Program-made: the position numbers and the translations under genes | Notes under the pieces: model-generated | Databases searched by the model: none | Seen by the model: the letters and a program-made list of their open reading frames with translations, nothing else | What the model was told of the DNA's origin: nothing | Shown: positions 4,415-35,026 of the stretch, one piece after another | Layout: the number at the start of each line of letters is the position of its first letter | Numbering within the stretch: position 1 is the stretch's first letter | Source of the DNA: Gekko japonicus | Taxonomy: Eukaryota | DNA: 64,000 nucleotides | Assembly (NCBI RefSeq): GCF_001447785.1 | Contig: NW_015175971.1 | Span: 1,795,778 to 1,859,777, forward strand | Reading direction: 5' to 3'

Positions 4415-4608
4415 TAGGGTTGCCAACCGCCAGGGGATTGCTGGAGGTCTCCTGGGATTACAACTGATCTCCAGGTGACAGAGATCAGTTCACCTGGACT
4501 CTATGGCATTATACCCCATTGAAGTCCCTCCCCTCCCCAAACCCCACCCTCCTCAGGCTCCACCCCCAAAATCTCCATGAATTTCCTAACTCAGAGCTGG
4601 CAACCCTC
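4415..4608. mobile_element. hAT MITE, TAGGGTTGCCA family (Blackjack-like TIR)
   Basis: TIRs TAGGGTTGCCA / TGGCAACCCTC; perfect 8-bp TSD GGATGAGC. Confidence 0.88.
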
Positions 4609-29922: not shown

Positions 29923-31306
29923 CATCTATTGTGACTGGAGATGGTCCGGGATGGACAGGCCTATTACGAGTCACCCTGGGGGGCACTTCCACCCAGCACT
30001 AGTTGGGGATACAGTCCTGGATGGGCAGACCTATTATGAGTCAGACGGTGGGGAGGGAGTCCATCTGTCATAGCCGGGAGTGTCTGGGATCTACTGGCAC
30101 GTTACGAGTGGGACTGGGGCAAGTCCATTAATCACACGGGAGCCATGTCTGTAACACCGAGTGAGCCCTGCAACAAGCCCAGAAGAGCAGCGCCCCCCCA
30201 CCCTTGCAAACACTCCTGCCCCTTGTCAGAACAGCCTCTCAGTAATGGGTTCCCTCACTCGGCACTGCCGTCACTGGGAGTAGGATCTATCGCTTTGCAC
30301 AGGCAGTTTGCTTCATCACAGTAGCATAATAATAATATGCTTGGGAAGAGCTCACAGTTGTGAATTAATGTTTAAAAGCACTCAGTTTTGGGTTGTTGAA
30401 ACCCACGTTAATTTGACAAATGGCCGCCATTGGAACTCAAGCGACATTAACATGGAAATAAGAGTTAACCTCCGGCGGGGCAGAGGGAAGGTGAGAGGCA
30501 GGAGGCGTCGGCAGAAAGCAGCCGTTTTTCACCCTTCTGCGCCTCCTGTAAATACTGCCGGTGTCGTGCCTATTTATAGAATAGTAATTTAGAGGCCAGT
30601 CGGAGGGAAATCTGAATGACATCTTCCTGCGATCACTTCTCTTAGGAGGCCCTCCTCCCCCAACTCTTGAAAAATACTTGCCCGGCCACTAAATCAATTT
30701 GCTTTCCACGTGTCGCTGCATTTGCTGGGCGATTCTTTTGCATTTCTCCATCAGCATCACCTGTTTGCGGGGAGGAAGGACCGCTGCAGCAGGGAACACC
30801 CACCAGTAGGGAAGGGCGACCAGGGTACAGCAATAAAGCTCTCCAAACTTGCTCATCCCGATTTAGGGTTCTCTGGCTGCGATTGAGACAGGCTCAAGGC
30901 AGATGTTTACTTTTTCAGATTTCTGGGGCTGAAACGTCTCCGAGAGAGAGCCCTGCCGTCTACACCATCCCTCATGAAGCTGCCTTATACCAAGTTAGAT
31001 CATAGGGTCCTTTAGCAGCTTTTCAGGGGGAAGGATGGTCTTTTTGAACACTTGAAATCCTGTTAAGGGGAGATGCTGTGATGACCTTCAGCAGAGGTGC
31101 TCTGCCGCAGAGCTGCCAGGCTTCCTTATATGAATATATGAAACTGCCTTCTACCAAATCCACCTGTCCCAGGTTGACTGGCAGTGGAGCTCCAGCATCT
31201 CAAGCAGGAAAAGATCCATCCATACACCAGGAGATTATTTAAGGAGAGGTGCCAGGGTTTGAACCTGGCTGTGCTACTACCGAGCCCTTACCACCTCCTT
31301 ATTTCT

Positions 31307-31519: not shown

Positions 31520-31872
31520 TACCACCTCCTTATTTCTTTTTTTTTTAATAAAGGTTTTATTTACTCTCCTGAAAAGGAGAGGTATTTTGCTTAAATAGAA
31601 AAATAGGGAGGGTATATAGTGGGAGAAAGAGAAAGCTGAGTGATATATTAACTTGTAAATTAATCTGTTAGTAATGTCCAAATTATCTTCTTAGGCTTCT
31701 TCTGTGTGCAGTCAAACTTCTTTCTTCAAACCAGTTAAAGGTGTTATCTATGTTAGTGTATTAGTAGTGTTCATTCGATGCTCTGTTAGTTAAAGTTTCC
31801 TCAAGGCGCATTCAGAACCGCTCCTTCGCGTGCTGGCTTCTTTTAAATTCCCGATTTCATGGAGGGGCTTCT

Positions 31873-32582
31873 TGTCACGGCAGGACCAGGGGGCGTGACG
31901 CAAGCAAGCAAAAGTCCAGGAACAGTCCGAGGTCAAGCCGGGCAAATCAGGTAGCAAGGTTCAAGCAGGTTTAAATCACAGTCCAAAAGCAGGGTCAGAC
32001 ATACCAAAGTTTCAAGTCCATAAATCACAACAATACCAGAGGAGTCAGAGATGAACGCAGGGTCAACAAAGCCAAAGGTCAAAAGCCGAGGATCAAGCCG
32101 AGAAGAATTCCACAAGGTCTGGAGCAGAGATGCAAGGATTCAGGTCCTGAACAAACGACGTTGCCAGCACAAATGACTGCTGGCAACAGACTTGCATATA
32201 TACAGTGCTAGCTAATCAACTCATTAGCTAGCCAGGAGTGAGGACAGGATCCTGTCAGTAATCAGGGCTAAGAGATCTTCTGGCACGCATGCGTGCATTC
32301 TGCCTTCGCTCTCTCAGCTGTTGTCTTCTTACATTCCTGAGCCTGGTTACAGGTGGAGGCGAGTCTGATGATGAATTACTGGGCTGCAGCAGAGACTGAT
32401 CCCTTGCAGGTGTTCCCTGGGAGGCTCTATCCTCCTCACCACTTAGATAGCTTTCAGCTACAGGATCCAGTCTTTGCCTTTCTGCTGCAGTACTGTCCTC
32501 AGGAGCCTGTTCAGGGTCCTCAGGAGCCTGTTCAGGGGCATCAGCAAAGGCAGGCATGACATCAGCAGGGGCAGGCATGACA
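31873..32582 (-). mobile_element. Solo LTR, probably Ty3/Gypsy type (710 bp)
   Basis: TGTCA...TGACA termini; TATATA at 32197-32202; pyrimidine-rich R/U5 with recurring CTTGACC/GGACT motifs; no matching TSD. Confidence 0.75.
32255..32578 (-). CDS. Putative LTR U3-encoded 107-aa protein (acidic N-terminus, Arg-rich C-terminus); hypothetical
   Basis: ATG lies 4 nt inside the LTR end (TGTCATG); open to just upstream of the promoter; internal duplications are 21 bp and preserve frame; no expression evidence. Confidence 0.35.
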   Translation of the reverse strand: MPAPADVMPAFADAPEQAPEDPEQAPEDSTAAERQRLDPVAESYLSGEEDRASQGTPARDQSLLQPSNSSSDSPPPVTRLRNVRRQQLRERRQNARMRARRSLSPDY

Positions 32583-35026
32583 ATCGGGAGCTTCAGACCC
32601 TGGTGTCGCGCCAGGCTTCAAGTTGCCAGTTACCCCCTGCTTACACTGCAAGCCTCCCGCTTTCGCGGAAGAACTTGCCTTCTGGATCGTCTCCCGTCCG
32701 TCCATCCACACGTGGCCCTCTTCTCCGTATCAACTCTCCTCCTGTCTTGTTGGCCTTCATCTCCCAGTTTGCCTCAGTCTGGGGGAGAGACAAAGAGTAG
32801 GACTGAAAGGCCCGTCTGAGGCCTCAGGGCCCGTTTCCTCTCAGCCCAGCCCGCTGGGTGACCCTTTCAGCAAGCTGGTATCTTGCAGTGTTTGGTTCCC
32901 CTTTGTTCCCGCCTGTCTAAACTCGAAAAGGAAATGCATGGCAGCTGTTCAACCCTTCTCTATCTTGGCCTTCAGCACTGGCTTTTCCAGGTTTGCATTT
33001 TCCTGCTTCCATGCTGTTACCATACTGAGGCCTGGAAGGAGTACGGGAGAAAGATCAACATTTCAAAAAATCCCTCTGTCAGCCAAGACCGGCCCCTTTG
33101 GGTCTCCGCTCGCGCGGATTCCCTCCTCCACCGCGGGCGGGCGAGACGCCCTCGGGAGCGACCCGAGGATGCGTCCGCCATTCGCAGGAGCCAAACCGGA
33201 AGCCCCACCTCCTTATTTCTAAGGGGACGTGTGATGGAAGGAAGACACTCAACAGATGCCCTGAGGTATTTGTTGCTATTACAGAATACTGATTTGGTAC
33301 CTCCTTGCTCAGCTTCTGGAAGGTCTTGACCTGCTTTAAGAACAGAAGGGCAGCCCTGTTGGATCAGAACCTTGGGCCAGTCACTTTCTCTCTCAGCCTA
33401 ACCTACTTTGCAGGGTTGTTTTTGTACAGATAAAATGGAGGACAATACCACAAGCCATACTGTCCCCCCCCCCAATGGGGTATAAATATCTACATAAATA
33501 TTCTCCTGTTCGTTCCCAGAAAAGCTTTGTTTCACATTGATGCTAAAAGGATGGAGATTAACATCTCCAAAAATCCATGCTATTTTGAGTCAGTGATTCT
33601 TCCCACTTTTCGACATGGGAGATCAATGTGCTGTCTCCGATTAATAAGACAAATTAGAGGAAGGCCATTTCTACAACAATGGGTAGAGGGAAACGCCTCC
33701 TTGAATTCTTTGCTATTTAGGAACACAAAAACAGGAAGGGGCCCCAGAGGTGCAGCAATTTTGTCTACCTCTGAAAACACCTTTTTACGTCAAAGGAGCT
33801 GGTCCTTAAAAGTTTTGCATTTTTAAAAAAGAAATATCTTTTACCCTTCGTCTGGTAACATTATGATTTTCTCACCTAAAGGTCTTCTTGAGAATCATGT
33901 CCAGAGACTGGACCCAAGGTCCCCAATGGAGGCATGAACGGAATTGCCTTTTTTGTGCAAAAACTACTTTACAGAATTTTAGTGAATTCCATAACACACG
34001 ATATGGTAATGGCCATCAATTACATAGCTTTTTAAAAGAACTCTATCGACAAGTACTTGCTCAAATAACTAAATAGAGCCTCCATGTTCAGGGACAGTAT
34101 ACCTGTGGATACCAGATGCTGAAAGAGCTGATTGACTTAAGGGTCTGTTATCAACTTGACCGAGGCATCTTACTGACCGCTGCTGAAAACAGGGTGCAGG
34201 TATTGATGGATCTTCGGTCTGTTCCAGCAGGGCTCTTGTTCTCTTTTAGAAATAGTTCACAGTATAAATTATAAACATGCGTAGCATTTAAACTGGACTT
34301 TTCCTCACTGCTCAAAACATATTAGAGACATTATCTTAGATACATTATCTTGGTTATCCCTACAACAATCGTGCAAGGTAGACCTGTATCACTACTGTAC
34401 TGCAGATCTCAATCTGTTTGCTGGATCACTTAATACAGAATAGTTATGCCTTAAACTATTAAAAGATCGTGCTTTGTAAATTTAAACCACAGGGATTCTA
34501 ATCTTTTTAAGCAGAGCGGGCAAGATTCTAGATGATTCCACTTGTATGAGAAGTTCAGTGCCATTCTAAACAGAGTTATATGTTTCTAAACCCATTGCCC
34601 TCAATGAACGTAGACGGGTGCTTAAGATTGTACTGTTGGGATCCAACTTGGTTGGGAGATCACACACCATCTGGATCTACGGCATGCCAAATGGGACTAT
34701 AACTCATTACCAGGAGGAAAAAAAACATTTACGTAATCAAATTGCCATAGGAGATGCTCATCGTGGGGCCAAGGTGTGAGAGAAACCCAGTTTTCCTCAG
34801 CATCCTCCAGGCCATAAATTGTAATTGTTTCTCCATTAAGGCTGATGATAAGAAATAGACAAACGGAAGGCAAACTGTACTGTGGGCAAGTCTTAGAGGC
34901 GGAAACAGGAAATCCCGTGCAAATACAGAGTATACAGGCCATCCCGGGCATCGACACAGCTGGACAGCTGATATTATTATTAGCGGCAACCATGAAAATA
35001 CTCTGTGTGTATGTGTGTATTCAGGA

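Follow-up and report, generated by a model that had tools for sequence, protein, structure and literature searches.

Coding sequence overlaps the U3 of an LTR in MMTV (sag) and HIV (nef), which carry it as separate ORFs on spliced RNAs of env-bearing retroviruses. The gecko element described here shares that overlap, but its U3 frame is continuous with pol and no splice is seen in 3,655 RNA reads. Closer in organization are the Tf1/Sushi (V-clade) chromoviruses, with which it shares gag and an overlapping pol, the order PR-RT-RH-IN-chromodomain, att ends, a 5-bp TSD and a self-priming PBS, the latter a feature of this group (PMC6317226). The pol of these relatives mostly stops before the polypurine tract (PPT) or shortly after the chromodomain, whereas the gecko lineage adds 90-110 selected codons encoded in U3.

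In plant elements of CRM group A the polyprotein likewise reaches the 3' LTR, which encodes what is described as a putative targeting domain (PMC3059260, PMC3605345); in these elements the CR motif takes the place of the chromodomain (PMC6317226). The gecko element differs from CRM-A in that its chromodomain, with the three aromatic positions, stays upstream of the PPT while the LTR adds a second, low-complexity module. This chromodomain is canonical and the tail has no Pfam match, so that, compared at the level of domains, the CR motif does not replace the chromodomain here. Since gecko and CRM-A are separate lineages, the two tails presumably have independent origins. Ty1 integrase, of the Copia superfamily, also has a long disordered tail, at the end of which a short functional segment combines an NLS and a targeting domain (PMC8487063); its tail lies within pol before RT and not in the LTR, and the likeness is one of layout. 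HMGN proteins bind the nucleosome acidic patch through RRSARLSA, whose core is RRSARL (PMC12487698), and foamy virus Gag provides an acidic-patch tether in integration (PMC6282019). The lizard tails share with HMGN/Dsup and foamy Gag a short Arg-rich motif in a disordered context, PRRSARLKA in Podarcis compared to RRSARLSA in HMGN, but the gecko version is without the Ser and sits in a predicted helix.

The sequence-only reading knew of no precedent in Gypsy-type LTRs. Passage of pol into the 3' LTR is already known from plant chromoviruses, as CRM group A demonstrates (PMC3059260); what may be new is a selected LTR-encoded tail in a vertebrate lineage. A search of an open-access library, PMC2832683 included, gives no account of a pol-into-LTR tail or of the Arg-rich block in vertebrate gypsy elements; Repbase, subscription papers and supplements lie outside this scope and may mention them.

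The LTR of the window and its full-length relatives

The window, a stretch of 64,000 nucleotides of Gekko japonicus, carries on its minus strand a 710-bp LTR (31873..32582) of a Tf1/Sushi chromovirus of the Ty3/gypsy type. Its ends, TGTCATG...CGTGACA, fit the Sushi att motifs TGTYANR / CNTNACA given in Table 3 of PMC3601003, and the ATG therefore belongs to the attachment site. The window LTR departs from the Sushi LTR model of the same paper (PMC3601003) in having neither AATAAA nor ATTAAA as poly(A) signal within its 710 bp.

The U3 reading frame has 107 codons followed by TGA (32255..32578, minus strand) and corresponds to the C-terminal tail of Pol/integrase. Its start codon, at 32578, is built into the TGTC-ATG terminus as the sequence-only reading described; of the interval 32255-32582 assigned to the frame, the end at 32255 stands, while 32582 is the start of the LTR, and translating from there gives the wrong frame. 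Codons 1-70 (32369..32578, minus strand) form an acidic, Pro-rich linker of variable length, under relaxed selection but kept in frame. In the window copy this linker has 15 D/E and contains the two 21-bp tandem duplications reported earlier (32495-32582, minus strand). Codons 71-107 (32258..32368, minus strand) form a conserved Arg-rich block, with 11 Arg and no Lys, which is a predicted helix with the consensus SPPP.V.RLR..RR.EL..RR..ARMR.RR..SP[DE][YF]; the acidic-to-Arg-rich course of the frame is thereby borne out. The TGA lies 52 nt ahead of the TATA-like box TATATAT (32196..32202, minus strand), in agreement with the ~50 nt first estimated. The ORF was overstated as the entire U3: it takes ~324 of ~412 nt, when the U3/R boundary is placed at the self-priming site GTGCTGGCAA (32161..32170, minus strand), 10 nt complementary to the PBS of full-length copies. 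As this site would mark the U3/R boundary, transcription would start near 32170, 32 nt past the TATA box. The LTR ATG is ~408 nt upstream of that position and would thus, in a 5' or solo LTR, be off the element's own transcript; in these LTRs, among which the window copy may be, the frame would merely be carried along, silent, ahead of the promoter.

A DNA search of the gecko's own genome with the LTR gave 1,252 candidates, and all 40 that were scored are ~100% identical over 710 bp; a Gekko japonicus protein shows 99% identity across the portion it covers, in keeping with that gecko as host. LTR pairs spaced 5,124 bp delimit full-length elements of 5,834 bp. One of these holds gag as a frame of 340 aa and, overlapping it, pol as a frame of 1,304 aa. 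Pfam identifies in the latter RVT_1, RT_RNaseH, Integrase_H2C2, rve, SH3_Tf2-1 and Chromo (residues 1129-1176), and the order is PR-RT-RH-IN-chromodomain with the RT-RH-IN and C-terminal chromodomain of Tf1/Sushi elements. Gag has a weak Pfam match to a CCHC knuckle, and neither the frames nor Pfam reveal an env in the full-length element. The gag/pol overlap is of ~135 nt with pol in the -1 frame (positions 4423-4558 in copy L032), and G GTA AAA within it may serve as slippery site. Ten nucleotides of the PBS are complementary to the self-priming site at LTR nt 413 in the four full-length or 5'-LTR copies tested, which represent subfamilies A1, A3, B and F. Three full-length copies are identical over 5,834 bp, an identity that may reflect homogenisation during assembly; copy counts are not independent because young copies look homogenised in this way.

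The LTR is inserted in a poly(A)-tailed non-LTR element (31538..33204, minus strand) that is bounded by a 16-bp TSD (33205-33220 and 31522-31537) and lacks its middle. This host element, of ~1.05-1.35 kb, has a high copy number (2,058 candidates) and a CpG-rich 5' end, and we take it to be probably a non-autonomous element of L1/Tx1 type. The sequence of its 16-bp TSD recurs near 31300. The middle measures 631-926 nt in three intact copies and is replaced at the window locus by the 514-bp left flank of the LTR (32583..33096, minus strand), which is common to many LTR copies. Seven of 30 LTR loci carry this flank at 100% identity; their right flanks differ, and several of these loci adjoin N gaps. 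In reads and contigs from other samples, both the host element and the flank have other continuations. The left junction of the window is found at 39 places in the assembly and the matching right junction at none. The flank is likely an assembly artefact, probably from gap filling, although a real rearrangement at the window locus alone is conceivable. We rejected the possibility that LTR and flank form a composite mobile unit: no right junction matches, several copies either adjoin N gaps or have another LTR within 4-5 kb, and in an independent contig the flank passes into sequence that is not LTR. Another shared flank, with GGGTAG at its end, stands before 4 of the 30 loci. Among the 30, six other copies are true solo LTRs with a 5-bp TSD. 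The window LTR has no TSD (CCGAT vs AGAAG) and its flank is the one repeated 39 times, so that the solo LTR of the sequence-only reading is not established; because the left flank is likely an artefact, the window copy may be either solo or a 3' LTR. More generally, with one left flank on many copies, flanks and solo or full-length calls are unreliable for this LTR family in the assembly.

The U3 frame as the end of pol

In full-length elements, pol stays open past the chromodomain, across the PPT and into the 3' LTR (…YPDKPGPFDEGGPEGGDSV|MPAPADV…SPDY stop). The PPT is crossed in frame (…PDKPGPFDEGGPEGGDSV|MPAP…), the stop codon of pol lies inside U3 of the 3' LTR, and a single 1304-aa frame spans from the protease to this stop. 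Chromodomain and tail form one unbroken frame, at 98-100% identity, in 34 places, and 26 of these fall within the 1304-aa frame. Distinct pol/LTR junctions are in frame in 39 cases out of 54, the remaining 15 being out of frame through changes in the length of a G run. Such variation at the PPT uncouples the tail from pol, and either RT slippage or sequencing error may be its source. Loci recovered with a fish chromodomain-only query, which is blind to the tail, are in frame in 21 of 30 cases. This continuity with pol distinguishes the frame from U3 accessory genes of the sag or nef type, which are separate ORFs. We are highly confident that the U3 frame represents the last 107 codons of the integrase, kept by purifying selection on the final 37.

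Selection and distribution of the tail

Selection was assessed by pairwise comparison of real copies: 58 distinct LTRs of subfamilies A1, A2, A3, B, C, D and E (96 extracted, 4 removed as duplicate or miscalled, identical copies merged), and 19 LTRs of family F obtained by DNA search, with one duplicate and three partial loci excluded. Net dN/dS is the between-subfamily value minus the mean within-subfamily value. For the last 37 codons it amounts to 0.04-0.31 in seven subfamily pairs, with upper bootstrap bounds of 0.10-0.78; three other pairs, which involve family F, are saturated at synonymous sites, with values of 1.7-2.2 at third and 0.16-0.26 at second positions. The other two forward frames of the same segment give 0.71-9.9, and the reverse frame sharing third positions mirrors the signal (0.20-0.75), as expected. 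Past the stop, the LTR gives 0.41-1.36 over all six frames. The chromodomain, used as control, has a dN/dS of 0.05-0.18 in six pairs, similar to the last 37 codons; the IN-core control was discarded for L035 (misaligned) and is saturated for L150. The acidic part has a net dN/dS of 0.35-1.30, with intervals that include 1 in 9 of 10 pairs. The last 37 codons are therefore under purifying selection in the pol frame only, while the acidic part need only stay in frame. The sequence-only reading was right in proposing a coding U3 with its frame kept and dN/dS below 1 between subfamilies. It also correctly singled out the Arg-rich end, which is the conserved block beside a relaxed acidic part, as the functional portion, the function itself being putative.

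The bias of indel lengths that had been suggested as a check is equally found: when single intact copies, one from each subfamily, are compared, 11 of 15 gaps within the frame have a length divisible by 3, against 6 of 53 elsewhere in the LTR (p = 7e-6). The commonest length of the frame is divisible by 3 in every subfamily (270-324 nt). Gathering subfamilies A-E by protein search and using intact copies in the gap test both favour open frames; in family F, collected by DNA search, 12 of 19 copies are in frame and 4 of 19 fully open. Of the 25 premature stops overall, 21 are at arginine codons that contain a CpG, a pattern of decay after insertion.

A homologous block is present in a lacertid. 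Pol of Podarcis muralis, 60% identical to the gecko protein in the integrase, ends …GGPGRGDGV|M, followed by an acidic Pro-rich stretch and SPDLQRLRAERRRELVAPRRSARLKAR. Its tail aligns without gaps to the gecko block over 27 residues and scores 19.6-20.9 bits on a profile built from gecko blocks only, a score matched by none of 2000 local shuffles; the peptide suggests that this tail, too, is encoded in the LTR. It contains PRRSARLKA, and RRSARL plus A occurs in five Podarcis proteins of one cluster. An integrase tree of 41 rows groups the tail-bearing gecko families in one clade (100/99), sister to the Podarcis family (98/91). A second Podarcis family (P0104) and the Logan protein P0043 have tails that are likewise acidic and then Arg-rich, possibly independent extensions into the LTR. 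We do not claim homology for them because 426 and 279 of 2000 shuffles, respectively, score as high, nor for the cobra model, which has no score on the gecko block profile.

The second chromovirus lineage of the gecko (L133-L146; 40-47% aa identity, LTRs of ~390-470 bp starting TGTCAG) has its pol stop 25-65 nt ahead of the LTR at the 7 of 7 loci whose LTR start can be placed, and none of its 14 loci has a tail of this kind. This lineage amplifies without the tail, which is therefore not needed by the whole clade. Among 135 chromodomain-bearing relatives that were fetched, 79 end within 30 aa of the chromodomain; 39 have at least 80 residues after it and are mostly, by eye, chimeric frog gene models. 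Most fish and fungal relatives are without the tail. Searched alone, the tail finds no Pfam family, no Atlas match and nothing in the PDB better than E 0.66. A profile search for it among longer proteins, a weak search, came back empty, and a search of representative proteins retrieved solely five gene models of Gekko kuhli. These models (P0028-P0032), annotated as 'hypothetical', begin in the U3 frame, from which a single site in U3 is spliced to gag, to a host phosphodiesterase model or to unrelated sequence; they are probably prediction artefacts.

Possible roles of the tail

We favour the hypothesis that the frame is a selected integrase tail whose basic, Arg-rich end serves, next to the chromodomain, to tether it to chromatin, which as a whole is probably the best explanation; taken separately, tethering is a putative job for the tail that we hold somewhat short of an even chance. 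The tail would be made only within Gag-Pol, which would arise by a -1 frameshift, from genomic RNA carrying U3 at its 3' end. The integrase would then end with the chromodomain, an acidic spacer of 50-70 residues and the Arg-rich helix. While the chromodomain reads methylated H3, the acidic segment would serve as a flexible spacer that lets the helix reach the nucleosome surface, either its acidic patch or DNA. Tethering is favoured because the block adjoins a chromatin reader, because the lacertid copy carries RRSARL and because foamy virus Gag and CRM-A offer precedents. A single-sequence AlphaFold model of chromodomain plus tail predicts coil followed by a helix at 162-188 (pLDDT 72-93), the only confident part of a model whose mean pLDDT is 56.6 and whose chromodomain is misfolded. 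The complex predicted for the 42-aa block and gecko H2A-H2B scores 0.02, in a run whose controls were not folded, and so weighs neither for nor against tethering. Gecko versions of the block read RRQNARMR, RRKAARMR and RRKEARMR. As they are without the Ser of the HMGN motif and are predicted to be helical, the likeness to HMGN rests on the lacertid copy. We advance only tentatively the broader idea that a lizard lineage of chromoviruses gained through its own LTR a second chromatin-targeting module, so that chromodomain, flexible acidic linker and an HMGN-like acidic-patch anchor follow one another.

The same residues could instead form the nuclear (or nucleolar) import signal of the pre-integration complex, as in Ty1 integrase, which we find rather unlikely. 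Tat and Rev carry import signals rich in Arg, and the block has 11 Arg in 37 residues. Classical importin-alpha signals need Lys, however, which the window copy lacks, and the spaced hydrophobics V..L....L/M......M/L, kept over 27 ungapped residues between gecko and lacertid, are more than such a signal usually needs. Its location, at the very end of integrase and preceded by a disordered segment, does match Ty1 (PMC8487063), whose integrase end is also needed for reverse transcription (PMC8487063). This last property, together with the Arg-rich predicted helix, would suit a tail that binds RNA or cDNA in the particle as reverse-transcription chaperone or in packaging, possibly after release by the element's protease at a cleavage site that the flexible acidic linker could hold. 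We regard such a role as improbable: gag already has its putative CCHC knuckle (weak Pfam match), the tail-less sister lineage has the same replication parts, and no cleavage site was identified.

The sequence-only reading saw in the frame an accessory, transactivator-like protein, and had itself set against this proposal the result now obtained, an integrase C-terminus running into the 3' LTR. Such a protein, which in the manner of MMTV sag or nef would start at the TGTC-ATG of a spliced RNA or of one initiated internally, has become very improbable. The position of the ATG is indeed constant in all gecko subfamilies and in the lacertid and cobra proteins, selection on the block is silent on which mRNA makes it, and the five G. 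kuhli models do start in the U3 frame. The ATG is, however, part of the att motif TGTYANR (PMC3601003) and far upstream of the inferred transcription start, no stop separates pol from the U3 frame, the element is without env, and the 'hypothetical' G. kuhli models splice into unrelated sequence. Over the whole element, 3,655 RNA reads (three unstranded runs of one study, tissue not given, 3-12% of each run read) contain no splice joint; in the deepest run the depth is ~25-46 in U3, 12-80 internally and 115-145 at the U5 end, so that U3 does not exceed the internal part. At either terminus of the LTR there are loose read ends, which point to host transcripts reading through, and the index lists no RNA run as holder of the sequence. 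These reads are weak evidence against a subgenomic RNA. A neutral run-through, in which pol lost its stop and U3 is open by chance or through a DNA-level constraint such as an enhancer, is scarcely credible: the net dN/dS of the acidic half is compatible with it, but not the third-position excess and low dN/dS that the last 37 codons show in no frame but that of pol, nor the gap lengths in multiples of 3, nor the homologous lacertid block. Provided that the alignments are correct, these comparisons refute it for the Arg-rich block.

What appeared as an accessory gene thus becomes an integrase module open to testing. The chromodomain is usually regarded as the end of the integrase in vertebrate chromoviruses; this lizard lineage has an extra selected segment encoded in the LTR, which gene finders and LTR annotation treat as non-coding. 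ORFs in solo LTRs accordingly need checking against pol, and LTR flanks in the short-read gecko assembly are partly artefactual. Lineages with and without the tail coexist in one genome, so that their insertion-site patterns are directly comparable. If the broader idea of a second module is right, one stretch of DNA is both promoter-proximal U3 and selected coding sequence, and G-run slippage at the PPT would disconnect the tail in roughly one copy in four. The second targeting module would then be a vertebrate parallel of the plant CR motif, making of a retrotransposon integrase a bivalent nucleosome reader.
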